Assembly (NCBI GenBank): GCA_027028545.1
Contig: JALVIT010000028.1
Location: forward strand, 1 to 42,213
Direction of reading: 5' to 3'
Source of the DNA: Desulfurococcales archaeon
GTDB lineage: Archaea > Thermoproteota > Thermoprotei_A > Sulfolobales > Desulfurococcaceae
DNA length: 42,213 bases
In this document: piece by piece, positions 12,234 to 33,696 of the stretch
How the letters are laid out: each line of letters starts with the position of its first letter
Numbering within the stretch: position 1 is the stretch's first letter
Made by a program: the position numbers and the translations under genes
Notes under the pieces: generated by a model
What the model saw: only the letters and a program-made list of their open reading frames with translations
Databases searched by the model: none
Told to the model about the DNA's origin: nothing

Positions 12234-13024
12234 TCCCCCATCTCCTCCAACAACTCCTCTAGACTATAAATATCCTCTAATCCTACCTCTCTATAGAAAA
12301 ACCTATTAATATTAACTATATCCCTCTCAAGGAATAAGTGGGCATTAGGATGCTCGGGAGGTACTGCCTGTCCAACATCTATAACCACTATATCTAGATC
12401 CGGTTTAACCATTATATTGTATTCAGAGTAGTCTCCATGGACTAATCCAGCGCTACAAACGATCTTCTTAAGCTCCTCAACTACGAGCTCATAAATATGT
12501 TTAACCTCATCATAGGATAGATCATTATAAACCTCAACCAGTAGCGGATACCTCCTATTATCCTCACCCATAAACTCCATAACCAACACATTATTCCTAT
12601 AAGCTATAGGTCTTGGAACCTTAACACCCGATTCATACATCCTCTTAAGATTTCTAAACTCCTTACGCGTCCACGTATATATTAGACTCCTCGTATCCCT
12701 CGGACGAAAGCCTTCAAACCTTGGATCGCCTATGATGTATTTAAGGATCCCCTTCTTAAACATAGCTGTGCTCGTAAAGTATATTTTAACCGCATACCTC
12801 TCCCCTCGAGGCCCATAACCTAGATATACTCTAGCCTCCTTACCGGCACTGATTACACCATTCATCCTCTTAATTATCCTTCTACGTATTAGTTCGTATA
12901 GTGTTAGAACTGTTTTTGTATCGAAGACCTCCTCAACCGTTTCATATAGATCCTTATCCTTAATCCTCTTAAGCTCCCTCTTACTCGTATAATCTATTAT
13001 GTCGGGTAGCTCGTCTCGACTCAT
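12206..13024 (-). CDS. rio1: RIO-type serine/threonine protein kinase Rio1
   Basis: Motifs ISAGKEARVY, LVHGDYSEYNIMV and VVIDVGQAV. There is no N-terminal wHTH, so this is Rio1-like. The start overlaps the aIF-1A stop (ATGA). Confidence 0.9.
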   Translation of the reverse strand: MSRDELPDIIDYTSKRELKRIKDKDLYETVEEVFDTKTVLTLYELIRRRIIKRMNGVISAGKEARVYLGYGPRGERYAVKIYFTSTAMFKKGILKYIIGDPRFEGFRPRDTRSLIYTWTRKEFRNLKRMYESGVKVPRPIAYRNNVLVMEFMGEDNRRYPLLVEVYNDLSYDEVKHIYELVVEELKKIVCSAGLVHGDYSEYNIMVKPDLDIVVIDVGQAVPPEHPNAHLFLERDIVNINRFFYREVGLEDIYSLEELLEEMGECLGMRREG

Positions 13025-13359
13025 ATAAACTCACTCAAAGCCTCTAAGAACTCCCTAGGTAATACACCCTTCTCGACGAGCTTAGCAACCTCGCCACGGG
13101 TATATCTATGTAGAACCTCACCCCGGTTTGGTGAAAAGTCCCATATACCAACTAGGACTATATCACCCTCATTCATCCAAACCCTTCGACGCATCTTACC
13201 GGGTATACGCACCTTTCTATCAACACCGTCTAGGCATTTAACAACTAGATAATCCCCTCCAAGGAGCCTGATCACTCCGCATAGCACTGTACCCTCGGTT
13301 GGTAGTGGTGGTTCCTTACTTGTCTCCTCCCTTCCCCTCCTCTTTTTCTTCTTAGGCAT
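13021..13359 (-). CDS. eif1a: translation initiation factor aIF-1A
   Basis: 112 aa with a basic N-terminus and an S1/OB pattern (VIRLLGGDYLVVKCLDGVDRKVRIPGKMRRRVWMNEGDIVLV). Confidence 0.9.
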   Translation of the reverse strand: MPKKKKRRGREETSKEPPLPTEGTVLCGVIRLLGGDYLVVKCLDGVDRKVRIPGKMRRRVWMNEGDIVLVGIWDFSPNRGEVLHRYTRGEVAKLVEKGVLPREFLEALSEFI

Positions 13360-13373
13360 GTATTCTCACCATG

Positions 13374-14447
13374 TTAATCAGATTGTTCTTTAACCATATA
13401 GGTTTTATCTTTCACTCTAACCCTACTCACATGATCGCCTACCTTGACGTTCTTCAACCCCTCAGTCCTAGGATACTCTACCATCTCACCAGTCTCCTCG
13501 TCTAGTAGGTATATACTAGACTTATCTACAGCTATAACCTCATACTCCCTCTCATAAACCATGTAGCCAGGCTTCTTGATCCTCCCTCTCCAGTAGTCTT
13601 CATGCCTATAATGCTCCCTCTCACCGGATCCAAGCTTCTCAACATATATACCATGTCTATCAACCCTTCGGACAACCGCCGGCTCACCTTCGACCTCCAC
13701 GAGATCCCTCTCATGTATATCCGGTAGCCTAACTGAGAGAGTTGTTATACCCTTCCAAGACCCCTTATCCGGCTGGTATTTTGTGGGCTTGAAGGACTCT
13801 GTAACCTTAGCACCAGTCTCACGGCTTATAATGGTCGATAACCTACGGGCTGCAACGCTTGAAAGCATCTTAATATCTAATCCATGCTTATCCTCCTTAA
13901 CCTCTACAACCTCCTCGGCAATACCCGGCTCCCCGAGAACCTTCTCAACAAGTCTCTTCTCATCCTCCTCCAGATACCCCCTACTACTCCTAATCTGGAC
14001 CAATGCCTTATGTGTCTTCCCAGCTATTGATAGGCATCTGGGACATAGCTTATGTTCCAGTACTAGTTTTACCTCCTCTTCAACCTCCGCCGGATATGTC
14101 TCCGCTAGTAGTATGTGCAGTTTAACCTTAACGGCGTGTTGCGACTCGTTGATCTTATATATTGGCGATATAGCTTCTACATCCAATAATGTTACATCCC
14201 TATATAGTAGTCTATGGGATTCGCCTAGGATGACTCTACGTATAACCTCCTCGATCGGCAGTGGATCGTTCCACACCCCCCTATAGAGCCATGAACCACA
14301 TCGCGGACAAATAGTTATCCTTAGGAGGGGTGTTGTCGAGAATATTCCATGATATCTTATATAGCAGTCGGGGCATAAGCCATTGATTAACGGCTCATCC
14401 TCCCCAACGATCCTCCCACAACGTATACAGTATCTCTCCCTAGGCAT
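13374..14447 (-). CDS. nmd3: NMD3-family 60S subunit biogenesis/export factor homolog
   Basis: N-terminal CxxC clusters (CIRCGR...CPDC...CPRCGS) followed by the NMD3 body, with a conserved archaeal neighbourhood. Confidence 0.8.
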   Translation of the reverse strand: MPRERYCIRCGRIVGEDEPLINGLCPDCYIRYHGIFSTTPLLRITICPRCGSWLYRGVWNDPLPIEEVIRRVILGESHRLLYRDVTLLDVEAISPIYKINESQHAVKVKLHILLAETYPAEVEEEVKLVLEHKLCPRCLSIAGKTHKALVQIRSSRGYLEEDEKRLVEKVLGEPGIAEEVVEVKEDKHGLDIKMLSSVAARRLSTIISRETGAKVTESFKPTKYQPDKGSWKGITTLSVRLPDIHERDLVEVEGEPAVVRRVDRHGIYVEKLGSGEREHYRHEDYWRGRIKKPGYMVYEREYEVIAVDKSSIYLLDEETGEMVEYPRTEGLKNVKVGDHVSRVRVKDKTYMVKEQSD

Positions 14448-16765: not shown

Positions 16766-17590
16766 CTAGTATTGTTCTAAGAACTGTATTACCGGATTAT
16801 ATTTTGCCAGAGACTTATTTATCTTCTCAACTAGTCTAAGTAGATCGCTTAGTCTTACAGGTAGGCTTGTTGGAAATGCCCTTATGATTATAGATACCTC
16901 TCCGCCGCCGATCCTTCTAATAACTATCTTTTTCTCATCGATCCTAAACACACTTAATTCTAGCCTCTTAATTGAGTCTATAACATCGTTGACAACCGTC
17001 ATAGGATCTCCTTCTGCATGGCTTAGCTTGATCAGTAGCTGTATTGATGGTATGTACTCCGTCATTATACTATTAACTAGGAGGGTGTTTGATACATATA
17101 TCCTCCTACCATATATATCCTCTATCGTCGAGTTTAACGGCTCTATACTTATGATCCTACCATAGACTGGTTTATCGTGGTGGGGTAGTTTAAACTCATA
17201 TGTTCTACCATGGATGTGCCTGAGTAGTTGTAGGTTTATATATGCTAGGAACTCCCTCAATTCGTAGAAGAATAGTATTATCGATGCGATTATTAATAAT
17301 GCAACCGTTACAACAAGCATATACGCCGTAACAACTAGCTCTAAGAAGGCTACAAGTATTATGAATATCGAGATGACATCTATTAATCTTATAAGTGTTG
17401 ATTTAGTCCCAGCAGATATCCTACCCCTATTCATTAAGGCTGTTATGAATCTAGCTAAGATTATCCGGATGACAACTACTAGGAGGGTTATCGCTATAGC
17501 AGTCCACATTTTAAAGATTATTGATTCTACGGGTCCATAAACCACTGTAGTTGTAGTATTATTCGCTGCATCGAATACTATATCGTTCAT
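16766..17590 (-). CDS. MscS-like mechanosensitive channel family protein
   Basis: Three N-terminal TM helices followed by a beta-domain pattern (VYGRIISIEPLNSTIEDIYGRRIYVSNTLLVNSIM) like the MscS core. Confidence 0.5.
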   Translation of the reverse strand: MNDIVFDAANNTTTTVVYGPVESIIFKMWTAIAITLLVVVIRIILARFITALMNRGRISAGTKSTLIRLIDVISIFIILVAFLELVVTAYMLVVTVALLIIASIILFFYELREFLAYINLQLLRHIHGRTYEFKLPHHDKPVYGRIISIEPLNSTIEDIYGRRIYVSNTLLVNSIMTEYIPSIQLLIKLSHAEGDPMTVVNDVIDSIKRLELSVFRIDEKKIVIRRIGGGEVSIIIRAFPTSLPVRLSDLLRLVEKINKSLAKYNPVIQFLEQY

Positions 17591-19842: not shown

Positions 19843-21789
19843 CTAGTATACTAGGAGCCATAGGCTCTTCTGTATCAATCCTATAGCCACAGCTATAGCG
19901 ATCATCAATCCCTCTCCAAGCCCTAATCCCGCAGCTATTACAGCTATGTATTCCCTGAACCATTCCGGGCCCTTACGCCTCTCGAGTATCCTGGCGAATA
20001 TTCCTCCGATGAACATCGTCATGGTGTATGCTATCGGCTGGCTCATACCGATCGTGAACCCGATGAGCTCGAAGGGTATTGCGAAGACCTTAACAGCTGC
20101 AACAACTCCAACACCTATTATGAATGGCAGTAGTATACGGGTTGGCCAGTTTGAGAAGTTCTGTAGTAGTGCTGAAGCTATCCGGCTCTCACCAGTCTTC
20201 AATGCACCGCTACTCCATGCGGGCCATAGTAGAGCCCATAGTGCCGCTATACGCCAGAATATAGCTGTAGCTGGATATGTTGAGCTGGGCATTGGGGCTA
20301 TGCGCCAGAATAGATCCGCATAGATCATGCCCATCAAGTATGTTAATGGGAATGCTATGAAGTATGCTTTAAGATAATCGCTCTTCTTAGTCCCCGTCCA
20401 ATCACATGCTACATATACAGCTGTCCAACCACTAGCACCACCATAGACATATATCGGTGTGAACCATGCAGCCACACCGCGGTAGCCGCTGGCTAGTAGT
20501 GCACCCTCCTTAATATATGGTAAGCTTATACCAGTTGCAGCCTCACCAATAGCACGGGTGTTTGCTAGCTGGAATAGTGTTGAGAATCCAACTATTAATC
20601 CTAAGAATAATAGGAGGAATTGCGGTGTAGCCCATTCAGGCTCTACGAGGTATATGAGGTAGTATACGAATAGGCTTAAACCAGTAGCCGATAATAGATA
20701 GATCAACAATGCGAACCTAGTCAGAGACATACCCCAGAACGTTGGCTCCGGATGGGCTGGTTTCTCACCCCTCTTAAGCTTCGGAGGCTTAAACACCCTT
20801 ACAACACTTCTCCAGTTTAGAAACATGGGTGTCAAACCGGCTGCAAAGCTTAGACCGATCAGTGGTCCCACAAACAGCTGTAGCAGTCCATACTGGAATA
20901 TATCTCCAAGATTCATACCGGGCCTCCAGAGTGTGAACCAGCCGGTGTTTACAGCGTATGGTGCTAGTATTAGGTATGAGAATATACCACCTATGAATAT
21001 CGATACGTTAACCCTCCAAGGCATGATCATACCGACACTGATCAGTAGTAGGTCTAGGCTGAATCCAAGGGAACCGCCCTTCAAACCCATTGATTCGACA
21101 GCGCCAGTTACATCAGCCCATGGAACTGGTAGGAGCTGGACACCGAATATAAACCATACACCATATAGTAGGAAGCTGTATAGTAGGCTGAATATAGCAA
21201 TGTTAACTAAGAGCCTAGCCTTATCCTTCCAAATATGCTTCTCAGCCAATACAATGCTTGACTCAGCCCATACACGTGCACCTGGGAAGGGTAGTTTCTC
21301 CTCAACAGCATATATTCTATATAATACGTATGCGAGGCTTAGATCCATACCCTTAGTGAGTAGTGCTGAACCAATAGCTACTAGGAGTGGAGGTATGAAT
21401 ACAACCTGGAAGAGAGTTCTCGGGAGCTCTGGCACTGATGGTGCATACCAGAAGGGTATCTTACCATAGAGTCCGAAGCTTTTAGCATATTCGCTTGTAG
21501 CAATATACCATGCCAGTATAAGGTTTACACCGAATAGGCTCTCGGAGATCGTTGTGCCTACATTGCTGAACATTATGAATGCTTCCTGTCTAGTAAGTTT
21601 AGCACCCATAATCGTTGCTATGGTTGTGAATAGTAGTAGTGTTGTGTATTCAGCGGAGTTTATTATCTGCCATGGATTCAAACCAGCTACTAGGTTAAGC
21701 CATATAGCTGCAGGTTCGAAAACCAGTGCGCCGTAAAGTATGGCTAATATAACTCTCCACGTAAGACCGGAAACCTCTTTTTCACCCAA
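19843..21789 (-). CDS. OPT-superfamily-like polytopic membrane transporter
   Basis: 648 aa with many TM helices. OPT-like landmarks: N-terminal LTWRVILAILYGALV, EEKLPFPGARVWAES (cf. the OPT L-x-[FY]-P-S-G motif), SLDLLLISVGMIMPWRVNVSIFIGG, and C-terminal AAGLGLGEGLMIAI. Confidence 0.55.
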   Translation of the reverse strand: MGEKEVSGLTWRVILAILYGALVFEPAAIWLNLVAGLNPWQIINSAEYTTLLLFTTIATIMGAKLTRQEAFIMFSNVGTTISESLFGVNLILAWYIATSEYAKSFGLYGKIPFWYAPSVPELPRTLFQVVFIPPLLVAIGSALLTKGMDLSLAYVLYRIYAVEEKLPFPGARVWAESSIVLAEKHIWKDKARLLVNIAIFSLLYSFLLYGVWFIFGVQLLPVPWADVTGAVESMGLKGGSLGFSLDLLLISVGMIMPWRVNVSIFIGGIFSYLILAPYAVNTGWFTLWRPGMNLGDIFQYGLLQLFVGPLIGLSFAAGLTPMFLNWRSVVRVFKPPKLKRGEKPAHPEPTFWGMSLTRFALLIYLLSATGLSLFVYYLIYLVEPEWATPQFLLLFLGLIVGFSTLFQLANTRAIGEAATGISLPYIKEGALLASGYRGVAAWFTPIYVYGGASGWTAVYVACDWTGTKKSDYLKAYFIAFPLTYLMGMIYADLFWRIAPMPSSTYPATAIFWRIAALWALLWPAWSSGALKTGESRIASALLQNFSNWPTRILLPFIIGVGVVAAVKVFAIPFELIGFTIGMSQPIAYTMTMFIGGIFARILERRKGPEWFREYIAVIAAGLGLGEGLMIAIAVAIGLIQKSLWLLVY

Positions 21790-21910: not shown

Positions 21911-23956
21911 CTAACCGGTTGATAGGATTATTGAGAGCCACATCGTTATGAAGCTTAGTATAGCCATGCCAGCCATGAAGGGCACTATGATCTTCTCATA
22001 ACTCTCTACTCCTAGAACCCTAATGATCAACGGCTTAATGATCAATGCTATAAGGTTCGGTATGAACATTAACACCCCGGTTACAGGCATGTCACCGATC
22101 AATATACCCAACGGATTGAAGGGTATTCCGGGTAGTAGTACGCGCACCCATACCAGTAGTGCTCCAAGAACTATACCGGATATGAACTGTGGTAGCCATA
22201 GCATTGGGTCATTACTCATATGTGTTATCTGGTTGTTATGTATCATGCTGTTAATCCATGCAGGCTCTAAGTTAGTGTCAGCACCACCGAGCCATTGGCC
22301 AAGACCCCATCCATAAGCGTATCCTCCCAATAGATTCGTCACGAAGCTTATGATCACGCCAAGTATTACAGCAATCAACCCCACTTCAACGATCCTCCTA
22401 ACCCTCAAACCACTAATCTTAGCCAGTCTAAAGCCCTCCATAATTGCTGGTCCAGGGGTTGTAGCTAATGTACGATCAGTTACTAGTGGGTAGAAGGATG
22501 CTGCAGCGGCGAAGGCTGCCTTACTATTCCATCCACCACTATAACGGTATGGTAGCCATGGTAGGACCAGCATTTCATGCCACCATGGACCATAGGTGTA
22601 GATCGCTGTTGTCCATGTCGATTCTGCACGGATCCTCATCCATGTAACGTATAGTAATAGTGTGACGACTACAACTAGTAGTGCTATGTGTGCTTCAACA
22701 CCGCTGATCGCTAATAGTATCCATGTGAAGACAAGCCCTCCCCATGCGAATATATGTCCCCATTTAACCTCTCTACTAGATAGGTTCTTCAAATGCCTCC
22801 ATACTAGTAGGAACCACATGATCGGGAACCCTATAGCTATTCCACGGGTGATCATGTGTGGCATTAACCCATACCAGTGTCCAACCGTGAAGTAGTTGGT
22901 GTGTGCATCCTGTGTCTCGGTTAATGGTAGTATTCCAGCCATAACTTCTATAGGCGGTAGCACTATATACATTAAAATATACCATATAACAGCTGTAACC
23001 AGTATATCTATGGGCATTAGGAAGGCTAATGCTATGAATAATGGAGATACAGTGATCATCAACGCTATATCGTTACCTATAGATGGTGATACATCGTAGC
23101 CTCCAAACTGGGATACTAGTAGCTGACCATACATCGGTGGTAGTGCTTCACCGGGTATAACACCTATAGATGCTAGCAGTGCTGGAAGCTCTATGACGAA
23201 TCCAACAATAGCACCTATTAGGAACATTATCTTGGCAATCCCCCTATGCTCCCATACACCGCGGAACCCTCCAATCCTCATAACCTCTACAGCCATCTGG
23301 GCATATGGGAATGGCAGCATCTCCTCCTCGATCCATGGCTTCCTTAGTAAGAGGGCGAACCCTATCTGTGAGAAGGCTAGTCCTAGGAATACGAGTATCC
23401 ATAATGCTAGTGATGGAGCCCATGCTCCAAGTATTGTCCAGTACCAGCCTCCTTGTGATAGTAGGAGGGAGTGAGCATCTGGATCAAATAGTGGTGCTAG
23501 AACATGTAATGACCTGCCAGCGATGGTTATATTGTGGTTTGGAACCCATAAACTGGGCATTAGTTTACCGTAGTCTGAAACATATGCTCCATCACCATAT
23601 GTCATGTATATGTAGTGGAATAGTAGGAAGTTTGTTGAGAAGGCGTAGCCTGCACTAGCACTTATAGCTAGGTATATCAGTATGGAGTCTCCAACCGTTA
23701 AAGCCTTGTCTAGCCCTACAAGTTTTAGTAGAGCCTTTAATCCAAGATGTATAACTGCTATTACTAGGAGGAATATTAACCCTGCCCATGCCCATACTAG
23801 CTCCATGAATGTATACGGGTATACTAGTCCATAGATCAGTGTTGTCACTATTGGTGATACTATAGCCATTATAACCGCTAATACTATGCCCCAAATCGTT
23901 ACACCGCTAGGAGACACACCCCATACCAGCTTCTTCATACCCTCACTCATACCCAT
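21911..23956 (-). CDS. polytopic membrane protein, divergent paralog of 19843..21789 (OPT-like)
   Basis: 681 aa. It shares EEEMLPFPYAQMAVEVM and the LMPIDILVTAVIWYIL segment with its neighbour at equivalent relative positions. Confidence 0.45.
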   Translation of the reverse strand: MGMSEGMKKLVWGVSPSGVTIWGIVLAVIMAIVSPIVTTLIYGLVYPYTFMELVWAWAGLIFLLVIAVIHLGLKALLKLVGLDKALTVGDSILIYLAISASAGYAFSTNFLLFHYIYMTYGDGAYVSDYGKLMPSLWVPNHNITIAGRSLHVLAPLFDPDAHSLLLSQGGWYWTILGAWAPSLALWILVFLGLAFSQIGFALLLRKPWIEEEMLPFPYAQMAVEVMRIGGFRGVWEHRGIAKIMFLIGAIVGFVIELPALLASIGVIPGEALPPMYGQLLVSQFGGYDVSPSIGNDIALMITVSPLFIALAFLMPIDILVTAVIWYILMYIVLPPIEVMAGILPLTETQDAHTNYFTVGHWYGLMPHMITRGIAIGFPIMWFLLVWRHLKNLSSREVKWGHIFAWGGLVFTWILLAISGVEAHIALLVVVVTLLLYVTWMRIRAESTWTTAIYTYGPWWHEMLVLPWLPYRYSGGWNSKAAFAAAASFYPLVTDRTLATTPGPAIMEGFRLAKISGLRVRRIVEVGLIAVILGVIISFVTNLLGGYAYGWGLGQWLGGADTNLEPAWINSMIHNNQITHMSNDPMLWLPQFISGIVLGALLVWVRVLLPGIPFNPLGILIGDMPVTGVLMFIPNLIALIIKPLIIRVLGVESYEKIIVPFMAGMAILSFITMWLSIILSTG

Positions 23957-24055: not shown

Positions 24056-27000
24056 TCACTCCTCTGTTTTGAATAATTGTCTTCCCTCCTCGATATACTT
24101 CTTCTTATCATCCGGGGGTAGAGTCCTCCATAGTAGTAGCTGCTTCCTTAGAGCATCTATGAATGCCTTATTGGATTTAACCCAGATCTTCGGGTTTCCG
24201 CTCATCCTCTTCAAATATATAGTTATTTCCCATTCATCCGGTTTAACCTCTATAGACCTGATCGCGAACTCCTGTTTAACTCCTGCATGCCATGGCTTTA
24301 AGCGGACCTCACCGCCAAATACTATAACGTTCCTACCCTCCTCTGTTTTGCTTAGGGCTATCCCTGTTTTCTCTACAACGAAGCTTCCTATATCGGGGCT
24401 TGTAAACTCCTTTATATACTCATAGACATATGCTAGTGCTCCATATAACTCCCTCCTACTAGTTATCTTGAAGGGTAGTGGTATTATCCATTCATCACCC
24501 TTAGGCTTTGTGGGATACTCCCACTTCCTACGTAGACTTGGTAGTGCCATCTTACTAGCCTTTATTATCGGGTAGACCGTTGCAGATAATACAGCTATGA
24601 TCGTAGCTCCTATTGCGAATACAACGTATTTACTACTATAGTTCGGTCTGAATACTCCGGGTAGTATTGAAGCCATGAAGGCTGTAGATATAACACCTAT
24701 AACATATCCTATAACAGTTGCTACCAGAGCGTAGGCTAGTGCTTCGGCTATAAACATTAGACCGATCTGTGATGGTGATAGACCGAGTGCTGCATATATG
24801 AATATCTCCCTCCTACGCTCATAGATGCTTCCTAGGAGTACTCCAAGTATTGATACGCTAGCGATAACTATTGGTGCTAATACATAGTTGAAACCACTAC
24901 CTCCCAATGCGATCATTCTTGAATACTTCGATACACCATATGTCTTAGATGCTAGGTATGTGTCCACTGATGGTAGTGTGAATATTATCTTGGAGCCGAT
25001 CACGTATGGATCCTTCTCCGTAATTATAGATATCTGGGCTAGTATGAATGACAACCCCTTATCGAGCCATGGGTTTATCCTTACAAGTTTTGCCGGTAGT
25101 ATGAGTGTTCCAGATAGATCATGTGCTCTTGGGAAGTGTATTACTGGTGTTATCGTTGCTCCATCAGCTTCTATGATTAATGGTATCTTGTTAGTATCAT
25201 ATACTCCAATAACCCTGAGCTTTAATCCGCCGACAACTATTGTTGATCCAACATCTATCTTACCATTGGATGCTTCAACTATTCTAGATGGAACTATGAC
25301 CGTATATGTATCATTATCTGTGAACCATCTACCCCTAACGATTATACTAGATATATTTGTAACACGATCCTCTTCGGGCTCTAGAGCTGTTATAGAGTAT
25401 ACTATTGATTTAACACTTAGATCATCGTATAGATATAGGTTCAGTGTTGCAGACGACCAGTATCTAGCGACGGTTGTCCCCGAAAATACTTCTTTAACAG
25501 TTAATTCAGCGATAGAACCTATTGGTAGATTCCGGTCAATACTCTCCCTCTGGAGGAGGATCCCCTGCCCCCTAGAGGGTGTTACTCCGGGCATATATAC
25601 TGGTCTCGGAGCTATATATGATGTAACGCTTGTAAATATGACTATGCTTATAACGACAACTATTAGCGTTGTCAGTGTTAATGCTGTTCTAAGCCTCCTC
25701 TTCTTCATATATTCTACGCCATAGCTAAACGATATATAGCTGGCTACAAGCTTACTCCTCTCAGCCTTATGGACACCAACCTTCTTCCTCCTAATCTCCT
25801 TCAGTGCAGCGTTGAAGTCTCCTAGGAGCACTAGTAGGGCTGGTATAACCAGTATTATCATTATGAAGCCTACAATCGTCATTATAGCATTAGCCGTCAA
25901 CTTCATAGCTGGATGAATATAGAAGAATAATGCTGCAGGGACAACTGCTGCAGCAATGGTTTTACCTAGTAGTGAGAAGGGGCTTCCACCGGGCTTCTTA
26001 AAGTATAACCCCATGATGAATGCGAAGAATACTAGTAGTACCGAGAATAGTGTTGCTGTATTCTCAACATCTAGGAAGTCGCTCTTCATCAATTGGTAGG
26101 CGTTATATGCTATGGTTAAGCCCGTGATCGTGTAGGCTATGTACTTAGTATAATCCATACCTCGGAGGGCTTTGGTGGCGTTCTCCAATGCACTTCTACC
26201 CTGGACTAGGAATTCCTCAGTCGCCGGATCCCTTATCTTGTTCTCAGCTAGTCTAGCCAGCCTACGATCAACAATCCTTATCGTAGAGTTTAATGCATCG
26301 TATAGACTATAACTACCACCGGGCTCCACATTCTCAATAACATAGGCTACAGGTTCCGGTCCGAATACTAGGCTATACTTCATGTATTTATCAACATATA
26401 CTACCAGGAATCCATTTTCATCCAGTCCTATATAGTATGATGCAGGCATAGCCATCGTATCCATTCTAACAATCTTAAGACCTATCTTACCCCCCTCACG
26501 TGGTGTTTGATAGGTTAATGGATCTATAACCATGTTAACAGTTAGTGATCCATTAAACTCTATGGTCCAAATCTCCCATGGATGCTCCTTAGAACCTACT
26601 ACACCCTGTGATATAGCTATCGATCCACCCCTACTCGCTTCACCCATATCGTTTAACGCTAGAACACGTCCCTTCTCATCCATTATCACGGCTAGTATGT
26701 TTAGAGTTGTTGATTTAGATGTTGGTAATCCATCAACCTCGAAATATCCTTTATCATCAGTTATCTTATATATCCGGAGATTCCATGGACTGGTGGATAT
26801 TAATCTTGAACCAGCACTAATTATCACTAGAGCCCTTGGAAGACCCGCTTTATCGAGGCTGATCTGTTGTCCAAGCTGTGGTTTAAACACCATAACCTGA
26901 CCGATCAAGTCTGCAAACATTTCTCCACGATCACTCTTAGGTGTTCTAACGGGTGCTCCACCGGTCAGACCCATTTTTATCGCTTTACTCAACTGTCTAG

Positions 27001-28471
27001 AATTCATACTAAACACTATGTTTAGCATACTATCCAGGATCACGAACTGTGTCTTTAGGTTAGTTATATTAACGAATTCATACAGGTCTAATGGCGTTCC
27101 ACGATAACCCTTATCAGCCATAGATGTCTTCAATGTAAATGCAGGAAGCCCCGAGAACCAGAAGGGTTCCGACTCGAGCCAGTAGGGTCCTGGGAATAAG
27201 GTCCACCAGCTGTCAAGTGTTGTCGTATAGAACATGATCCTCCTCATAGATGTAACGATATTATCTGGAACCCTACCGCTTAAAGCCTTACCAACATTAT
27301 CCGGTGTATATATTTGTGATATGAAGCTACTGAAAACATTTAATGGTCCACGCGTTATTGCTCCAGCCTGGGCTGAGTAGAAGTATCCTATACTTACCGG
27401 TGCTATATAGATCGAGTTATAGTTTAGATCTATCCCGATATACAAAGTCTTATCCGGTTCAAGCGCTATGCTCATATTGCCAAACTTTATGGGTTGTTTA
27501 TCGAATATATACTTCTCTACAAAGAATCTATGACCCTCCAAACCCTCATAATATCCGGATAGGAATAGCATCAATACATCGTACTCCGGCGTATTATTCG
27601 TGAAATACCTAGCTAGTTCTAATAGATAGCTGGGAGCTATAGAATCCATAGCACCCGGTGCATATCCCACTACGGGGCTCCATGAATCGTAATGAGCTAT
27701 TAGTACTATCTTGTATTCACGGCTTCTACCGGGTATGTATGCGTATATATTTGTTGTATTAACCTCTCTCCATATCGAGTGGATACTCACACTTATCAAT
27801 GCATCATTTAGATCATCAAGGCTCAAACCCTTCTCAGCTAGATCCCTCGTGGATACATATCCTATCGGTAGATTGACCGGTACGTCTAGGTATTTATTAT
27901 ACATTAAACTATTCACAGCCCCTCTATCATCGTAGAATATTATGGCTTTAACACCTAGATGGGGATCTAACAGTATCTCCCACTTGTAGTCGATACTTAG
28001 TGGTAGGAATAGGATCCTACCGTTGAGATCAACTCCATTAATATCCCTTAAACTATGGATAACCAGCCCCCTACCCTCAGCTTCGAAGTTAACGGGAACA
28101 CCACCACTGGGCCATATGGGGTATGCTTTAACCTCTCTGCCATTAACATACATAACGCTATCCTTATCGAATGGTACTGCTATTGGATAGTTCTCTTCAG
28201 TGACTTGTACACCGTAGTTCTTTAATGTTCTATAAATATATCTAGCCGCAGCGATCGATCCATCGTGCCCGGACAGTTTATCCTTCATTGATGATAGCGT
28301 TTTTATATAGTTTATAATATTTGTATTATTTACAAATAGATCTGTTAACATGTATTTATGAACATAATGGTTATCAGATGCAACTGATACATTTACTGAT
28401 AAGGATAGAGTGAGAATTATTAATACTAATAGCAATAATGCCAAAACCCTACCAAATACACGTTTAACCAT
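24056..28471 (-). CDS. giant envelope protein: M28/PA peptidase-like ectodomain fused to a MacB/FtsX-type permease module
   Basis: 1471 aa. Signal/anchor at aa 8-30. M28 motifs IAHYDSW, APGAMDS, IGIDLN (aa about 255-350). TM helices at aa about 806-884. The FtsX unit spans aa about 926-1305 (KKRRLRTALTLTTLIVVV..., ERRREIFIYAALGLSPSQIGLMFIAEAL). The cytoplasmic tail (aa 1306-1471) has no Walker motifs. Confidence 0.75.
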   Translation of the reverse strand: MVKRVFGRVLALLLLVLIILTLSLSVNVSVASDNHYVHKYMLTDLFVNNTNIINYIKTLSSMKDKLSGHDGSIAAARYIYRTLKNYGVQVTEENYPIAVPFDKDSVMYVNGREVKAYPIWPSGGVPVNFEAEGRGLVIHSLRDINGVDLNGRILFLPLSIDYKWEILLDPHLGVKAIIFYDDRGAVNSLMYNKYLDVPVNLPIGYVSTRDLAEKGLSLDDLNDALISVSIHSIWREVNTTNIYAYIPGRSREYKIVLIAHYDSWSPVVGYAPGAMDSIAPSYLLELARYFTNNTPEYDVLMLFLSGYYEGLEGHRFFVEKYIFDKQPIKFGNMSIALEPDKTLYIGIDLNYNSIYIAPVSIGYFYSAQAGAITRGPLNVFSSFISQIYTPDNVGKALSGRVPDNIVTSMRRIMFYTTTLDSWWTLFPGPYWLESEPFWFSGLPAFTLKTSMADKGYRGTPLDLYEFVNITNLKTQFVILDSMLNIVFSMNSRQLSKAIKMGLTGGAPVRTPKSDRGEMFADLIGQVMVFKPQLGQQISLDKAGLPRALVIISAGSRLISTSPWNLRIYKITDDKGYFEVDGLPTSKSTTLNILAVIMDEKGRVLALNDMGEASRGGSIAISQGVVGSKEHPWEIWTIEFNGSLTVNMVIDPLTYQTPREGGKIGLKIVRMDTMAMPASYYIGLDENGFLVVYVDKYMKYSLVFGPEPVAYVIENVEPGGSYSLYDALNSTIRIVDRRLARLAENKIRDPATEEFLVQGRSALENATKALRGMDYTKYIAYTITGLTIAYNAYQLMKSDFLDVENTATLFSVLLVFFAFIMGLYFKKPGGSPFSLLGKTIAAAVVPAALFFYIHPAMKLTANAIMTIVGFIMIILVIPALLVLLGDFNAALKEIRRKKVGVHKAERSKLVASYISFSYGVEYMKKRRLRTALTLTTLIVVVISIVIFTSVTSYIAPRPVYMPGVTPSRGQGILLQRESIDRNLPIGSIAELTVKEVFSGTTVARYWSSATLNLYLYDDLSVKSIVYSITALEPEEDRVTNISSIIVRGRWFTDNDTYTVIVPSRIVEASNGKIDVGSTIVVGGLKLRVIGVYDTNKIPLIIEADGATITPVIHFPRAHDLSGTLILPAKLVRINPWLDKGLSFILAQISIITEKDPYVIGSKIIFTLPSVDTYLASKTYGVSKYSRMIALGGSGFNYVLAPIVIASVSILGVLLGSIYERRREIFIYAALGLSPSQIGLMFIAEALAYALVATVIGYVIGVISTAFMASILPGVFRPNYSSKYVVFAIGATIIAVLSATVYPIIKASKMALPSLRRKWEYPTKPKGDEWIIPLPFKITSRRELYGALAYVYEYIKEFTSPDIGSFVVEKTGIALSKTEEGRNVIVFGGEVRLKPWHAGVKQEFAIRSIEVKPDEWEITIYLKRMSGNPKIWVKSNKAFIDALRKQLLLWRTLPPDDKKKYIEEGRQLFKTEE

Positions 28472-28592: not shown

Positions 28593-30413
28593 CTACTTCT
28601 TTTTCTTTAATAGTATCAATGCTACTATGAAGATTACTAGTGCTATTATTACACCGATCCATACGATTAGGCTTACTCCTCCACCACCACTGGTTAATCC
28701 GGGGGAGTAGGATAGTTTTATCGTATAGTTCCCTTTATCGTTAAGGTTTAACGGTATATATGCATAGTCTCCCTGAACGTTAAAGCTTACCTCCTTTCCA
28801 TTAACTATAGCCTTGGATAGGGAGAATCCACCCGTTGATTTAGCAGATACGATCAATGTATATGTTCCGGGTACTTCCACCTCTCCAAGATCGATCTCTC
28901 TTATATTCGTCGAAGACGCTCCAGCGACATATCCTACAGATATACCACGCTTTATAACCTTACCACCTGGCCCTGTCAACGAGTATGTTATGTTTCCAGC
29001 CTGCGGGTCGAGTATAGCCTGCAGATCGGATCCTACAAACACTAGTTTTAACATCGCTATATATGTGATCGTGAACTCTAGTGTTAGCGTATCTCCCTTA
29101 TTGAGTTCAACGATTACTGTGGAATCCTCAACCTTTGTCCCATTAGGGAGTATCCAGTCTATGAATCTGAATTTACCTAGCTTATCCGTTGTTAACCCCT
29201 CTATATCTGATAGGATAACCTTATATGTTCCCTTCTCGAAGGGTAGTTTGACCTGCATCTGTGTACTGGTGAGGCTTACCTGTGTGTATAGTTCGCCTGT
29301 TATTGCATCGTAGAAGTATATAACTGTATCTGGTATTCCCTCACCCTTCAACGTGTTTAGTTTTAGGTTTATCGGGTATTTCAGCTCATAGGATACCTTT
29401 ATACATGGTACCTTCTTAGATACACCTCTGGATATTGCTTCGATGAAGTTGTTTGGAAGACCTAGATCCTTCATAAAGTATGGATGTATAGGGCCGGAGT
29501 ATAGCTTCATATGATACTCCTCACTGGCACCCGGATCTAGTGTTAATGGTTTGAACTCCGGCCTGATCAGTGTGGCTGGTTTACCTCCGGGCCCTGTCTC
29601 GAGCCATGCATACGACGTCTTACTGATCGTATCTTGATCGGCCATTATCAGCATCGTGATCCATCCCCATGGTGATGGATCAGTGGAGTTATCTAGTAGT
29701 CCTATCGCTAATAGTTTTCCATCAACATTTACTGGTCCACCAGGTAGTCCACCGCTCCAGCTTGATCCCTGAACATATGCTTCGAATGAACCATCGGTGT
29801 ATACTAGAAATTGCGTATCTTCATCAGGCTTCTGCCCTAAGAGTCCAACGATCTCTATACCATATCCTATCGGTCTACCCCATTGTTCTGATAAGTCTAT
29901 TGTTATGGTTTGCGCGCCTGTATTCTTGAGGGTTACGTTGAAGTCTGCTATGAAGCTGTTCTTGTATAGTTTAAATGTTTTTATGACTTGTAGTCCGTTG
30001 AACGGATCCTCTGTGATCGTGTATGTGATCTGTATAACCGTATAGTTATCCGTTTTCTCGACTATTTGTGCTTGTGCTGGCGTTGTCACCGCTTTACCAT
30101 ACCATGGGTTATTATCGCTTATCAGATCCCACATAACAGTAGTTAAAGCACCAAGATCGCCCATACCACCCCTCTGACCTGAGACGCCCTTCTGCCCAAC
30201 CGGGTATCTCAATAGATCGCTACATATACCGCGTATATTGGCTATAGCGCCTCCATGGTCTAGGTCGAATGTTATCTCAATATAACCGTTATCGATCTTC
30301 TCCTCTCCCCCTTGAGCCCATACATTGTTTGATGGCATTAGGGTGACCATCGAAATGATCATTAATCCTATTAATAATAGTGATAAGTATATCCTACCGG
30401 ATGCTAGGCTCAT
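28593..30413 (-). CDS. secreted, C-terminally membrane-anchored surface protein (beta-rich, unknown function)
   Basis: N-terminal signal-like helix (LSLLLIGLMIISMVTL...AQG), C-terminal GGGG-TM-KKKK anchor (VSLIVWIGVIIALVIFIVALILLKKKK), many N-x-S/T sequons, and a beta-strand-rich repeat-like C-terminal half. Confidence 0.65.
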   Translation of the reverse strand: MSLASGRIYLSLLLIGLMIISMVTLMPSNNVWAQGGEEKIDNGYIEITFDLDHGGAIANIRGICSDLLRYPVGQKGVSGQRGGMGDLGALTTVMWDLISDNNPWYGKAVTTPAQAQIVEKTDNYTVIQITYTITEDPFNGLQVIKTFKLYKNSFIADFNVTLKNTGAQTITIDLSEQWGRPIGYGIEIVGLLGQKPDEDTQFLVYTDGSFEAYVQGSSWSGGLPGGPVNVDGKLLAIGLLDNSTDPSPWGWITMLIMADQDTISKTSYAWLETGPGGKPATLIRPEFKPLTLDPGASEEYHMKLYSGPIHPYFMKDLGLPNNFIEAISRGVSKKVPCIKVSYELKYPINLKLNTLKGEGIPDTVIYFYDAITGELYTQVSLTSTQMQVKLPFEKGTYKVILSDIEGLTTDKLGKFRFIDWILPNGTKVEDSTVIVELNKGDTLTLEFTITYIAMLKLVFVGSDLQAILDPQAGNITYSLTGPGGKVIKRGISVGYVAGASSTNIREIDLGEVEVPGTYTLIVSAKSTGGFSLSKAIVNGKEVSFNVQGDYAYIPLNLNDKGNYTIKLSYSPGLTSGGGGVSLIVWIGVIIALVIFIVALILLKKKK

Positions 30414-30508: not shown

Positions 30509-30853
30509 TTAAATTGTTTGGTTTAAATACTTGATTAAATAGACTAGGCCCTGCGGCTTAACCTTATTTCCGGAAACTATTGCTTCCCTCGGCGGGTCAA
30601 GGAGATATCCTTTATATTGTCCGGGTATGTTGATTATATAGAATGCTTGTATTATGAATAATAGTATACATGCCTTCCTCCACGGCAACGAGTATATGAT
30701 CGATACTATGTCTTTAGACTTGATCGTCAGCCTATCTATTAGTTCACGATAAACATCTATGTTTTCCTCCTCCATAGCCTTAACTAGATCGTTAACCGTT
30801 ATACCGTATTCCCTCAATAGATCATAGAAGGCTTTTAGAACGTTGAGCTTCAC
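30509..30853 (-). CDS. hypothetical protein with one hydrophobic helix
   Basis: 114-aa ORF and the last gene of the same-strand array. It has one TM-like segment (ACILLFIIQAFYIINI). Confidence 0.45.
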   Translation of the reverse strand: MKLNVLKAFYDLLREYGITVNDLVKAMEEENIDVYRELIDRLTIKSKDIVSIIYSLPWRKACILLFIIQAFYIINIPGQYKGYLLDPPREAIVSGNKVKPQGLVYLIKYLNQTI

Positions 30854-30859
30854 ACTTAT

Positions 30860-31702
30860 TCACCACTCCGTGCAGAATACATTATTTACTAGGTTTATAG
30901 CGTCGCTAAGCCTCCTCTTAGAGGATTTTATCAGTGTATACTGTATATACTTCGACTTCACACAATTATTCAGATGCTCTACTAGGTATCCATAACTTAT
31001 TATGCCTATTAGTCTATGTTTAATCTCGTAAACCCTAAATCCATCCCTTCTAACCTGGTGTAGTCTAGTCATTTGTGGCTTCAATCTTTTTAGGATACGT
31101 GTCCTAGCCTCTGTAAACGGCTTACCCTGTTCATATACGTATAGGGGCATAGCGATCTGTATAACATGTATCTTCTTATCCCTCGACATGAAGTATGCAT
31201 AGCTGAATCCAACCTTAAATACCCGATCATATACGTAGAAGTCCTCGTATAGTTTTAATCCGAGTCCAGCCAGCCTCCACTCAACAATATCCCCCCGGAC
31301 AGGGTGGCAGTTTATACCGTTTAATATGTTTGAGAATAGTTGCAGGGATGTATTCTCCCCATCTAGTTGTGCTATGAATAGTCTCCCGGTCTCTTCACAG
31401 TACCATGATGATACATATACTCTAACATTACCCTTTAGAACATCTATATATCCTCGATGACCCCTTATCGTCTCCGATAACCTACTCTTCCTCTCATAAC
31501 CCTTCTTAACCAGTTTATTTATGTATGATTCATATGTTTTTAGTGCATTTTTACTCTTAGTAGTCCTCCAATATACTTCAAGCTTAGCCTTTTCCGGTGG
31601 TGCTGCTACTAATACTCCATTAAGCCTTGAACCCCCCTCATTCGTGATCTCCCAATCATTTGGAAGATTTAGCTCTACATGATTCCACACGATCCTCTTC
31701 AC
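30860..31702 (-). CDS. hypothetical protein
   Basis: 280-aa ORF whose start overlaps the stop of the PqqD-like gene by 4 nt. No motif recognised. Confidence 0.55.
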   Translation of the reverse strand: MKRIVWNHVELNLPNDWEITNEGGSRLNGVLVAAPPEKAKLEVYWRTTKSKNALKTYESYINKLVKKGYERKSRLSETIRGHRGYIDVLKGNVRVYVSSWYCEETGRLFIAQLDGENTSLQLFSNILNGINCHPVRGDIVEWRLAGLGLKLYEDFYVYDRVFKVGFSYAYFMSRDKKIHVIQIAMPLYVYEQGKPFTEARTRILKRLKPQMTRLHQVRRDGFRVYEIKHRLIGIISYGYLVEHLNNCVKSKYIQYTLIKSSKRRLSDAINLVNNVFCTEW

Positions 31703-32091
31703 TCACCACCACCGGGAGGGGTTGGTATTATTAGTTCTATCAGCCCCTTCTCAACGAGTTGTCTAATGTACGTGTATGTCGCTAGTTCAGCATTCCTCCT
31801 AGACAGACCGGTTATCTTCATAACCCTTTTAATAATGTCTTCTATGGTGTGTTTTCCATCGCATAGCTTCCATATTTCCGATCCAACCTTATCTAGTATA
31901 TATTTCTTATATTTCGGTGGAGGGGTTATTGAGAAGATCTTTAATAGTTTACCCATTATGCCATGATATTCCAGTTGGACTACTATAACTATGTTTCCAT
32001 CTTCATTCCTATAGTATTCCTCAGTAACCCTATGAGGTCTTGATTTGAGCCATACCTCCCTAGGTATTCTTATACCCTTCCTCCTAGGCAA
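31699..32091 (-). CDS. PqqD-family (RRE-like winged-helix) protein
   Basis: ILDKVGSEIWKLCDGKHTIEDIIKRVMKITGLSRRNAELATYTYIRQLVEKGLIELI matches the PqqD/PF05402 pattern (x-iW-x-l-DG-x-t-x-eI ... fl-x-L-x-x-gli). Confidence 0.6.
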   Translation of the reverse strand: MPRRKGIRIPREVWLKSRPHRVTEEYYRNEDGNIVIVVQLEYHGIMGKLLKIFSITPPPKYKKYILDKVGSEIWKLCDGKHTIEDIIKRVMKITGLSRRNAELATYTYIRQLVEKGLIELIIPTPPGGGE

Positions 32092-32094
32092 ATC

Positions 32095-33696
32095 CTATCC
32101 CATATAGATCCTTAATGCCTTCTCAGCAGATTTATCCCATGTATACTCCATAGCCCTCCTATGTGAAGACCTCCTAATAATCCATGGTGCTCTCGGATTC
32201 GAGATTAATAGGTCGTATAGCCTTCTATCCCCGATCCTCGATACTATCCTCCACCAGCCACTACTCCATGGTTCATGATAGCCGGACTCCATGAATAATA
32301 CCATATCCGTTAATGCATCTACCAAGCTCCACGGATCACCTGGTTCGATGTGTAGTCCAGTACCCTTTACACCATACCTTCTAATATCGAGAACTGTCTC
32401 AGCTAATCCACCAGTTTTTGAAGCTACGATGGCGTTTCCCGTAATCATACCCTCTAACGCTACTAGTCCGAAGGGCTCATAGGTGCTTGGAATCATCATA
32501 ACATCCCCCGCTAGATGTGTTAGATGAAATAGTGTCTTCGATACCCCAAATACAACCCTTAGGTTCTCGTGGTGTAGTATACTATTGTTTATGAGTTCTT
32601 CAGCCATCCTCCTCTCACCCCAGACAGGTAGGAGGAGCAGTAGTATTCTAACTTCCGGCGTGTTAGCTATGATCTCACCTATCACTTTAAGGAGTACATG
32701 AATACCCTTCTGTCTAGATAGTCTTCCAGTCATAAATACTAGTGGGCCTTCGCGTGTGAATGGCTGTATCTTACCGCCATTATGGAATGGGTATTCATCT
32801 ATTCCCTCTATAAACTTCTTAAACTCTCGATCATAGATTAATGGTTCTTCACTACCCATATGCCTAGGTGCTTCGATCTCTAGGTATCTTCTAAGGAACT
32901 CCCTATCACTACCCATGATCATTCTAGCATCAATGTTTAGATCGGGGTGGAGTTTTCTAGCTCTACTACACACTTCATCCAGGGTCCATGTGATCGCGTT
33001 TGGAATGTAGTCTACGTGTTCCTCGAGATCGAATCCGAGCCTACGGATCAGTGTTTTAGAATAGTCTTTGCTAACGGTTAATAGTTTATTCGATATCAAC
33101 GCTCCGAGTCTATCCGCCAACCCCCATGAGTATTCATAGTATTCCCTCAGAGTCCTCCTACCCTGAATCCCAGTTATCAATGTATGAGGGTCTAAGCCTA
33201 AACCATATGTTAGATCCTCCAATCTAAACCTAGTCTTACTGAGTAGATGAATCTGGTAATAGTATTTTGCGGATTCCTTTAATAAAGAGTTTAAAGCTAG
33301 TAGTGCTGGAACACTATGCCAATCGTTACCATGTATAATATCTGGTTCTTTCCCAGAATTCTCCTCGGTAAATATCTTTATAGCCTGAGCGAAGCTTAGA
33401 GCCTTATCCAGTAGTTTATCTGGGGAGTAAACCTCAGGGTCGTCTAGTAGTCCGCCGGAGAAAACTATATGCGGTACTGGTGGTTTATCGTAGAGATATA
33501 CTCTATATTTTCTATCATTAACTCTAAACTCTCCCAGAAGCTTATAATCCTCGGACACCGACCCATGGCTAGGTGTTAGGATGTAGACCTCATGACCCCT
33601 ATCCATAACAGCCTTTCCGAGTCTTGGGGGAACCTCTGCTAACCCACCGACTTTACGGGTATATATTGATTCGAAGCTTATATACCAGATCCTCAA
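32095..33696 (-). CDS. glgA: archaeal glycogen (alpha-glucan) synthase
   Basis: N-terminal KVGGLAEV motif and C-terminal YEPFGLVALEGMITG...KTGGLAETV at 533 aa. TTG start. Confidence 0.85.
   Translation of the reverse strand: MRIWYISFESIYTRKVGGLAEVPPRLGKAVMDRGHEVYILTPSHGSVSEDYKLLGEFRVNDRKYRVYLYDKPPVPHIVFSGGLLDDPEVYSPDKLLDKALSFAQAIKIFTEENSGKEPDIIHGNDWHSVPALLALNSLLKESAKYYYQIHLLSKTRFRLEDLTYGLGLDPHTLITGIQGRRTLREYYEYSWGLADRLGALISNKLLTVSKDYSKTLIRRLGFDLEEHVDYIPNAITWTLDEVCSRARKLHPDLNIDARMIMGSDREFLRRYLEIEAPRHMGSEEPLIYDREFKKFIEGIDEYPFHNGGKIQPFTREGPLVFMTGRLSRQKGIHVLLKVIGEIIANTPEVRILLLLLPVWGERRMAEELINNSILHHENLRVVFGVSKTLFHLTHLAGDVMMIPSTYEPFGLVALEGMITGNAIVASKTGGLAETVLDIRRYGVKGTGLHIEPGDPWSLVDALTDMVLFMESGYHEPWSSGWWRIVSRIGDRRLYDLLISNPRAPWIIRRSSHRRAMEYTWDKSAEKALRIYMG

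Follow-up and report, generated by a model that had tools for sequence, protein, structure and literature searches.

ABC (ATP-binding cassette) systems of type VII are known from a few bacterial machines: MacAB-TolC, LolCDE, FtsEX, BceAB and YbbAP-TesA. Here we describe a 1471-amino-acid protein (hereafter the giant protein), encoded on a 42,213-nucleotide stretch of contig JALVIT010000028.1 from a Desulfurococcales archaeon (the window, taken at its full length), in which a permease unit of the MacB/FtsX type is joined to a very large ectodomain. MacB-type systems comprise two permease units, MacB and FtsX function as homodimers, and MacB's major coupling helix is situated between transmembrane helices (TMs) 2 and 3 (PMC5985334). 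BceB has a single periplasmic domain and YbbAP works with the hydrolase TesA (PMC5985334; PMC12646458).

The giant protein shares with MacB, LolCDE and FtsEX the four-TM unit, the large extracytoplasmic domain between TM1 and TM2 and the coupling-helix motif between TM2 and TM3, and the cognate ATPases of its relatives score best against the LolD, MacB and FtsE models. To this plan it adds a signal anchor, a head of ~770 aa with PA and pseudo-M28 parts, three further TMs and a 165-aa tail of possibly helix-grip-like fold. It also differs from these systems in that its proposed partner unit is devoid of any extracytoplasmic domain, in its occurrence in archaea without peptidoglycan or outer membrane, and in its genomic ties to OPT-superfamily permeases, a protein of predicted Mog1/PsbP-like fold and a PqqD-like protein. 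We consider it likely that the giant protein serves a multi-component, probably heteromeric type VII ABC mechanotransducer as its large permease subunit, the one with the ectodomain, and does not energise itself; its likely heteromeric membrane pair recalls LolC/LolE.

Layout of the giant protein and its permease unit

The gene consists of 1471 codons without interruption (open reading frame (ORF) list and translation), as given in a preliminary description of this DNA, which left out the strand; it is the minus strand. A hydropathy scan divides the N-terminal half of the product into TM0 (aa 8-30), an ectodomain (31-800) and three TMs within 801-891. In the C-terminal half, a cytoplasmic stretch (892-925) leads to FtsX TM1 (926-956) and an extracytoplasmic domain (957-1190), followed by TM2-4 within 1191-1305 and the tail (1306-1471). 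The signal or anchor at aa 8-30 and the three TMs followed by an amphipathic cytoplasmic stretch had already been read from the translation, and the motifs then quoted are where they had been placed (AHYDSW at aa 259, APGAMDS at 271, GYYEGLEGH at 306, IGIDLN at 345 and YRGTPLD at 456). In window coordinates, the parts are as follows.

24056-28471, minus strand: whole ORF, 1471 aa, the large subunit (ORF list and translation)
28382-28450, minus strand: N-terminal signal anchor or signal peptide, aa 8-30 (hydropathy scan; basic N-terminus MVKRVFGR)
27002-28324, minus strand: predicted PA and M28-like pseudo-aminopeptidase ectodomain, aa ~50-490 (Pfam M28; phmmer against 2ek8; family profile against the PDB; family columns)
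26072-27001, minus strand: remainder of the ectodomain, aa 491-800, a beta-rich part and then a helical stalk into the membrane (no Pfam match; conserved in the family)
25799-26071, minus strand: three extra TM helices, TMa-c, aa 801-891 (hydropathy scan; HHalign against the FtsX domain 3%)
25697-25798, minus strand: basic, amphipathic cytoplasmic stretch, aa 892-925, ending in the pre-TM1 motif MKKRRLRT (sequence; aligns with the pre-TM1 region of MacB)
24557-25696, minus strand: complete MacB/FtsX-type permease unit, aa 926-1305, with TM1, an extracytoplasmic domain of ~235 aa and TM2-4 (Pfam; profile against the PDB)
24743-24832, minus strand: cytoplasmic TM2-TM3 loop with the coupling-helix motif (SIYERRREIFIYAALGLSP), aa 1214-1243 (invariant positions; location of the MacB coupling helix)
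24059-24556, minus strand: family-specific cytoplasmic tail, aa 1306-1471, with a conserved linker (LPSLRRKWEYPTKPKGDEW) and an alpha/beta domain modelled as helix-grip-like (AlphaFold2, Foldseek)

Per-segment profile searches, which the preliminary description had suggested, support homology to both M28 and FtsX/MacB_PCD. Within the permease unit, Pfam FtsX matches aa 1201-1308 (51.4 bits, cut-off 25.5) and MacB_PCD matches aa 933-1093 at the borderline (27.9 bits, cut-off 27). A profile of aa 895-1312 retrieved MacB (5lil, 2.1e-22) from the PDB in two segments that take in the pre-TM1 helix, and aligned with MacB residues 270-458 and with the full length of the MacB-like permease 5xu1_M, so that TM1 and a MacB_PCD domain precede TM2; YtrF, LolF and LolC were also matched. 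The unit is thus complete, as had been claimed, with an extracytoplasmic domain of ~235 aa in place of the ~245 aa first estimated. The C-terminal FtsX domain (TM2-4) carries the coupling-helix motif with R1219, E1222, G1230 and L1231 invariant; the loop, in which an ERRREI motif starts at aa 1218, accounts for 8 of the unit's 28 invariant positions, the remaining four of these being G1214, P1233, F1240 and E1243. Around the pre-TM1 stretch, H901, R925, R928 and T929 are invariant.

TM0, the ectodomain and TMa-c could together be envisaged as a degenerate first FtsX unit, as in the duplicated BceB, YbbP and ADOP proteins. We rejected this candidate, since TMa-c aligns with the FtsX domain at an HHalign probability of 3% and the polypeptide contains one Pfam FtsX domain and no second repeat. 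As TMa-c is not an FtsX repeat and the FtsX domain of the giant protein is homologous to a small FtsX protein described below (HHalign 98.8%), the giant protein has a single unit. BceB, YbbP and ADOP are likewise large and provide a type VII membrane domain that is asymmetric or pseudo-dimeric, and the window protein has a weak ADOP match in NCBIfam; in contrast to them it has one FtsX repeat, the second unit being apparently supplied in trans by the small FtsX protein.

Turning to the ectodomain, Pfam Peptidase_M28 (PF04389) matches aa 241-329 (39.1 bits, cut-off 21.3), with the first half of the profile alone (1-87 of its 193 positions). The N-terminal family profile finds in the PDB the PA-containing M28 aminopeptidases 2ek8 (8.8e-23) and 6hc6/YwaD (4.2e-21), then the transferrin receptor (3e-12), GCPII (6e-8) and Nicalin (9e-6). 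Both searches place the domain in the M28 fold, and its C-terminal HTPxD region aligns too, although weakly. The catalytic residues are different: in the phmmer alignment with 2ek8, the Glu-Glu pair faces Y307-Y308, the general base being replaced by Y307 and the ligand glutamate by Y308, and in the family profile the HTPxD histidine of 2ek8 and 6hc6, the last histidine ligand, corresponds to G458 of RGTPLD. Two zinc-ligand positions, H260 and D276, are retained; D348 is probably a third, assigned by motif alone (YIGID against YINAD of GCPII). Of the five co-catalytic zinc ligands (His, Asp, Glu, Asp/Glu, His), two are therefore substituted, at Y308 and G458.

Across 24 family members, the columns of the Glu-Glu pair read YY, HY, FY, HW, HF, HL, HH, RS or DA, and EE in none (0/24). 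At H260, 6 of the 24 have Tyr or Phe, and at D276 nine distant members have E, N, Q, P or G. Judged from these alignments, the M28 domain is a pseudo-enzyme and the loss of the Glu-Glu pair is family-wide. The non-catalytic character proposed from the motifs of the window protein alone thus extends to the family; a full set of five metal ligands, which would have contradicted it, was looked for in the alignments and is not there. Proteins of this family should accordingly not be labelled peptidases. Since the M28 fold reaches to about aa 490, the part of the ectodomain to which no fold is assigned amounts to ~310 aa (491-800) and not the ~450 first reported; it is kept across the giant family, and its C-terminal part is common to shorter relatives.

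In the transferrin receptor and nicalin, of which GCPII is an active cousin, catalytic residues have been lost and the PA and M28 fold now serves as a membrane-anchored binding module. The giant protein differs from these proteins in being fused to an ABC-type permease unit and in the set of ligand positions lost, and the helical dimerisation domain of the transferrin receptor and GCPII was not detected in it. FtsEX with EnvC-amidases, PcsB, RipC and CwlO offers another parallel, an ATP-driven FtsX-type transmitter controlling an extracytoplasmic module of hydrolase fold. Compared with FtsEX, the module of the giant protein is a covalently fused M28-family domain without catalytic residues, and the hosts include wall-less archaea; compared with the YbbAP-TesA group, the hydrolase-like domain is fused and catalytically dead. 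Archaea lack murein. Control of an active peptidoglycan hydrolase or of its activator, as in FtsEX, is excluded for the giant protein because the head is without catalytic capacity and members of the family are common in these murein-less hosts. The alignments thus support the view that the giant protein is a genuine MacB/FtsX-type transmitter covalently fused to a non-catalytic PA/M28-like ectodomain.

The linked ATPase and the small FtsX protein

A MacB-type ATPase was looked for in the 42-kb window and was not found. The only ABC ATPase of the window (40737-41480) is of the DrrA/GldA type; as it is translationally coupled to an ABC-2 permease, with which it is paired, and is 29% identical to the ATPases described below, it was rejected as a partner. 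The picture is different among relatives. We called ORFs in 88 loci containing a giant gene and classified the genes next to it with iterated hidden Markov models; 38 of the 88 have full flanks, and loci are numbered L001 and so on where they need to be told apart. A small FtsX gene (~180-250 aa) together with an ABC ATPase gene is near the giant gene in 18 of the 88 loci, and within 10 kb in 13 of the 38 with full flanks, including four Desulfurococcales lineages; a specific family would be expected there by chance in an estimated <1% of cases. In the Desulfurococcales loci of Staphylothermus marinus (L001), L008, L009 and L089, the ABC and small-FtsX genes are 5-8 kb downstream. The dedicated ATPase, always accompanied by a small four-TM FtsX, is also found in operons of Armatimonadota, Desantisbacteria and Asgard archaea. 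The statement that the giant protein has no partner ATPase therefore holds for the window and fails for the family, where a LolD/MacB-type ATPase is linked in many genomes; the preliminary description had itself named an FtsE-like ATPase adjacent in relatives as what would overturn its reading, and this is largely the situation encountered.

The pair-linked ATPases are all orthologues of one another, with 52-87% identity to the S. marinus reference in bacteria and archaea alike; their best NCBIfam models are LolD, MacB, YbbA, DevA and FtsE. Archaeal lineages have two diverged paralogous ATPase genes and most bacterial operons a single one. Only ~20 residues separate TM1 from TM2 in the small FtsX, a four-TM protein that hence has no ectodomain and bears the same ER..EIG motif as the giant protein. 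In more than 20 loci from several phyla it is encoded in the operon of the giant gene, between the PqqD-like and ABC genes. Conversely, in a metagenome scan starting from the small FtsX, the orthologous ABC gene adjoins in 66 of 76 loci, and a large FtsX relative, of giant or short type, is present in 9 of the 19 small-FtsX loci that are flanked by 6 kb or more on either side. The short relatives (~930-1000 aa) have the three-TM block, the MacB-type unit and the proximal tail, without the PA/M28 head; in ten loci they lie beside small-FtsX and ABC pairs, usually on the opposite strand.

Because MacB-type systems use two units, the giant protein has one and the small FtsX is homologous to it, we favour an arrangement in which the giant protein and the small FtsX, as separate polypeptides, would form an asymmetric two-unit membrane domain resembling that of LolCE or BceB. 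An ATPase dimer, heterodimeric in archaea with two paralogues, would dock on both coupling helices, and the existence of two archaeal paralogues fits such an asymmetric pair. ATP binding would then push TM1, TM2 and the stalk, and so move the extracytoplasmic domain with the ~770-aa head. Since the catalytic glutamates and one zinc ligand are lost, the head may be no hydrolase but a binding or clamping module, as in the transferrin receptor or nicalin.

The same gene order can be read in another way, with a homodimer of the giant protein binding the ABC ATPase dimer directly and the small FtsX belonging to its own complex or serving as a regulatory or alternative partner. This is how MacB and FtsX act (PMC5985334), about half of the well-flanked small-FtsX/ABC loci are without a large FtsX relative within 10 kb, and the single ATPase gene of most bacterial operons would suit a symmetric assembly. 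We nevertheless regard a homodimer as unlikely, given the place of the small FtsX inside the giant operon in several phyla and the short relatives that also adjoin small-FtsX/ABC pairs; in addition, a dimer of FtsX proteins devoid of ectodomains has no obvious output, and the two diverged ATPase paralogues of archaea suggest asymmetry.

For the window organism itself, the position of the pair must be sought outside the window. Synteny with S. marinus is kept from the glycogen genes through the PqqD-like, P300, P114, P606, giant, DUF6785 and OPT-like genes (described in the next section) and breaks after the OPT-like gene, where TrkH/TrkA come next in the window. One could thus propose that this lineage has lost the small-FtsX/ATPase pair and that its giant protein, independent of ATP, persists as a scaffold or receptor to the OPT-superfamily permeases next to it. 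The broken stretch is the one that in S. marinus holds the OPT-like, GH57, ~180-aa, ABC, ABC and small-FtsX genes, the pair of the window organism was not located, and adjacency to OPT-like or DUF6785 genes is far steadier than adjacency to the ATPase (35 against 13 of 38 loci). Against such a loss, the coupling motif and tail of the window protein agree with the family consensus and show no relaxation of constraint, a related genome has the pair unlinked yet present, and the source is a metagenome contig, from which absence cannot be deduced; we hold it to be improbable. The related genome is the metagenome-assembled genome (MAG) JALWZC01, in which the giant gene (L010, 61% identical to the window protein) is on contig 53, while contig 48 (L098) carries a block of small FtsX, ABC, ABC, ~180-aa and GH57 genes followed by unrelated genes, with no OPT-like or giant gene nearby. 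Because this MAG has the two on separate contigs, it is plausible that the ATPase of the window organism is encoded outside the window; of the two options left by the preliminary description, a partner encoded elsewhere is the one favoured. The lack of an adjacent ATPase gene does not make giant proteins orphans.

The second option was that the novel tail replaces the energising partner, so that the fusion would be autonomous, working without an ABC ATPase. It could draw on the absence of a MacB-type ATPase from the window and on the strong, family-specific conservation of the tail, whose profile matches 1,636 clusters of a 50%-identity library and lies at the C-terminal end in every one of the matches listed. 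The AlphaFold2 model of the tail (predicted local distance difference test, pLDDT, 86) has the secondary structure beta-alpha-beta4-alpha2, and all its Foldseek matches are helix-grip proteins of the START/Bet v 1/SRPBCC type (E 2e-4, probability 0.87-1.0) with template modelling (TM) scores of 0.24-0.41, which point weakly to a helix-grip-like fold. The earlier reading of this 165-aa tail as free of Walker motifs was borne out: neither the model nor the matches contain a P-loop or another nucleoside triphosphatase fold, and the tail was dismissed as an ATPase substitute. With an invariant coupling-helix motif and a dedicated orthologous ATPase linked in many lineages, including the closest cultured relative, an autonomous fusion appears highly improbable. 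The linker LPSLRRKWEYPTKPKGDEW directly follows TM4 and is disordered in the isolated model; it may be an interface, because it stands at the place of the MacB minor coupling helix.

Several observations weigh against the heteromeric reading that we prefer. About two thirds of the well-flanked giant loci lack the pair inside a distance of 10 kb. No small FtsX and MacB-type ATPase of the window organism's own were found in metagenome searches; two candidates from the same metagenome (ERZ23491094 scaffold_114 and scaffold_593) were assigned to co-resident relatives, as one has its own giant gene and a different MAG encodes a protein identical to the other. The choice between heterodimer and homodimer is inferred from gene order and domain logic only. 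The template modelling scores behind the tail fold are weak, and aa 491-800 have no Pfam match and, with the family profile, no PDB sequence match below E = 0.06. Finally, a conserved precursor-peptide ORF was searched for outside the large genes and was not found.

OPT-superfamily permeases and cytoplasmic partners

The genes around the giant gene in the window encode the following proteins.

19843-21789, minus strand: OPT-superfamily permease of 648 aa, the steadiest of the neighbours (Pfam OPT 1.1e-11; NCBIfam OPT_sfam)
21911-23956, minus strand: DUF6785 polytopic membrane protein, 681 aa (Pfam DUF6785 7.9e-23)
28593-30413, minus strand: P606, a 606-aa surface protein with N-terminal signal and C-terminal TM anchor, Desulfurococcales only (hydropathy scan)
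30509-30853, minus strand: P114, a 114-aa small membrane protein, Desulfurococcales only (kept in L001, L009 and L010)
30860-31702, minus strand: P300, a 280-aa cytoplasmic partner modelled with a tandem Mog1/PsbP-like fold (AlphaFold2, pLDDT 94; Foldseek)
31699-32091, minus strand: PqqD-like protein of peptide-chaperone type, or RRE type (recognition element of ribosomally synthesised and post-translationally modified peptides, RiPPs), 130 aa (Pfam PqqD 40.6 bits, cut-off 23.4)

The DUF6785 and OPT-like proteins are homologous over their full length (HHalign 99.8%). An OPT-like permease gene is near the giant gene in 59 of the 88 loci (28 of the 38 with full flanks), a DUF6785 gene in 47 (23 of 38), and one or the other in 74 (35 of 38). 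P300 genes (~300 aa) occur in 22 loci (16 of 38) and adjoin a PqqD-like gene in nearly all of them; the PqqD-like gene occurs in 20 (15 of 38), and the two are kept together in 20 loci.

In bacteria, the order is giant, OPT-like, P300, PqqD, small FtsX, ABC, as seen in twelve loci of Armatimonadota and other bacteria. It is permuted in Desantisbacteria (L048), where the P300-PqqD-smallFtsX-ABC block comes first, and in Asgard archaea (L030, L054), where smallFtsX-ABC-ABC lies upstream of DUF6785-giant-OPT-like. The Desulfurococcales order, read in S. marinus, ex4484_58, the GMQP bin and scaffold_114 of the window's own metagenome, is PqqD-P300-P114-P606-giant-DUF6785-OPT-like-GH57-~180aa, then ABC(-ABC)-smallFtsX on the other strand. 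P606, with a weak YidC_periplas match under the cut-off, is kept in L001 and L008-L010; the hydrophobic segment of P114 spans aa 49-79 (hydropathy scan).

P300 has no Pfam match and no PDB sequence match, and is hypothetical in every source. Its model matches PsbP, EagT6 (a chaperone of type VI secretion system effectors), PA94, DcrB, LpqN and Mog1 in Foldseek (probability 1.0, TM-score about 0.5 per half), so that by its predicted structure P300 is of an adaptor or chaperone fold. Its conserved CxxC, DH and CxCH motifs had made it a candidate Cys/His protease or zinc enzyme, which the tandem Mog1/PsbP-like fold does not support; the second Cys is missing from archaeal members. The PqqD-like protein has weak lasso, ScmD and GeoRSP PqqD-family matches in NCBIfam. 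As modelled, the cytoplasmic face of the system (tail, P300 and PqqD-like protein) would be made of binding modules and not of enzymes.

RiPP and lasso-peptide systems likewise have a PqqD-family protein encoded directly upstream of ABC transporter genes. They differ from the present loci, in which no cyclase, leader peptidase, radical-SAM enzyme or recognisable precursor stands beside the giant gene, the neighbour of the PqqD-like protein has a predicted Mog1/PsbP fold and not a protease fold, and the transporter is of the MacB type. We rejected a RiPP-type system, since the search turned up no conserved precursor ORF and all the small ORFs that appeared conserved are shadow frames of large genes; the precursor peptide and modifying enzyme expected beside an RRE were thus not found, P300 having a non-enzyme fold, although the absence of a precursor is not proven.

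The giant protein would most likely work with the adjacent OPT-superfamily permeases, and the helix-grip-like tail, P300 and the PqqD-like chaperone may be cytoplasmic adaptors for cargo or regulation. The cargo might be a peptide or some other small ligand of amphipathic character that is carried across the membrane or out of it; we offer this trafficking role as speculation, prompted by the constant OPT link, the peptidase-derived head and the PqqD-like partner. Only tentatively do we go further and suggest an undescribed envelope machine of bacteria and archaea (Asgard archaea included), in which an asymmetric type VII motor would be coupled through a pseudo-aminopeptidase receptor head to OPT permeases, with chaperone-like adaptors in the cytoplasm. 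If true, ATP would here drive the capture, hand-off or extraction of peptides or other amphipathic cargo by a system of a new class. Identification of the cargo would extend mechanotransmission to archaea, and could show how primary (ABC) and secondary (OPT) transport modules cooperate.

Distribution of the family and other features of the loci

In Desulfurococcales, full-length homologues of the giant protein share 47-62% identity with it; across many phyla of bacteria and archaea the figure is 24-28%. Scanning of species-representative genomes brought up giant relatives in at least 579 species genomes, the bacterial carriers including Armatimonadota, Latescibacterota, Gemmatimonadota, Omnitrophota and Desantisbacteria, and the archaeal ones Bathyarchaeia, other Thermoproteota, Brockarchaeota, Heimdall- and Hodarchaeota. 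The S. marinus F1 homologue is annotated 'DUF214', and every source describes the family as hypothetical or 'FtsX-like permease' only.

Our literature searches found no paper mentioning DUF6785 or DUF6784, and those on FtsX with M28, PqqD, OPT or archaea found no description of the giant's architecture, in line with the earlier remark that no characterised protein of this kind was known. The component superfamilies are known, and with the split subunits recognised nothing in the energetics is out of the ordinary. What we did not encounter in the searchable literature is the assembly of a pseudo-M28 head, a three-TM block, a helix-grip-like tail (as modelled), a minimal partner FtsX and OPT-like, Mog1/PsbP-like and PqqD-like partners. 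The known type VII repertoire would thereby gain a pseudo-enzyme head fused to the transmitter, a probable partner without ectodomain, a family-specific tail and a link to OPT permeases, together with a spread over many uncultured bacterial phyla and archaea without murein or outer membrane.

Other features were noted in these loci. In the Latescibacterota chromosome OZ244937.1 (L047, 7481-20950), two giant paralogues are in tandem, with a DUF6785 gene before each. A protein of ~175-183 aa, without Pfam or NCBIfam match, is encoded between GH57 and ABC-ABC-smallFtsX in Desulfurococcales (L001 21315-21866, L089 12042-12566, L093 12013-12555) and could belong to the system as an additional component. 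The PqqD-like gene overlaps a GT5 glycogen-synthase gene at the latter's end (window 31699-33696; L001 4723-6751). The upstream glycogen genes (two GH57, maltokinase-like) are kept in S. marinus and missing from bacterial operons, an arrangement that probably reflects synteny and not a functional link.

Elsewhere in the window, a 274-aa membrane protein without family match is encoded at 16766-17590 (minus strand), just past the TrkA/TrkH synteny break. The first 2000 nucleotides (1-2000), at the very start of the source metagenome contig, have a GC content of 0.30 against about 0.43 elsewhere and may be foreign or mobile DNA; four plus-strand ORFs at 39-1710 are without Pfam match. A normal tRNA-Val(GAC) gene lies at 8107-8184 (minus strand), and a 140-nt Rfam tRNA match at 10250-10389 (minus strand; 56.6 bits), not called by ARAGORN, is probably an intron-containing archaeal tRNA. 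Between these two tRNA genes, a 305-aa ORF (9209-10126, minus strand) has weak LAGLIDADG endonuclease matches under the Pfam cut-off. The strongest negative GC skew of the window (-0.39) is at 12001-14000, over a block of eIF-1A, NMD3 and RIO1 genes.

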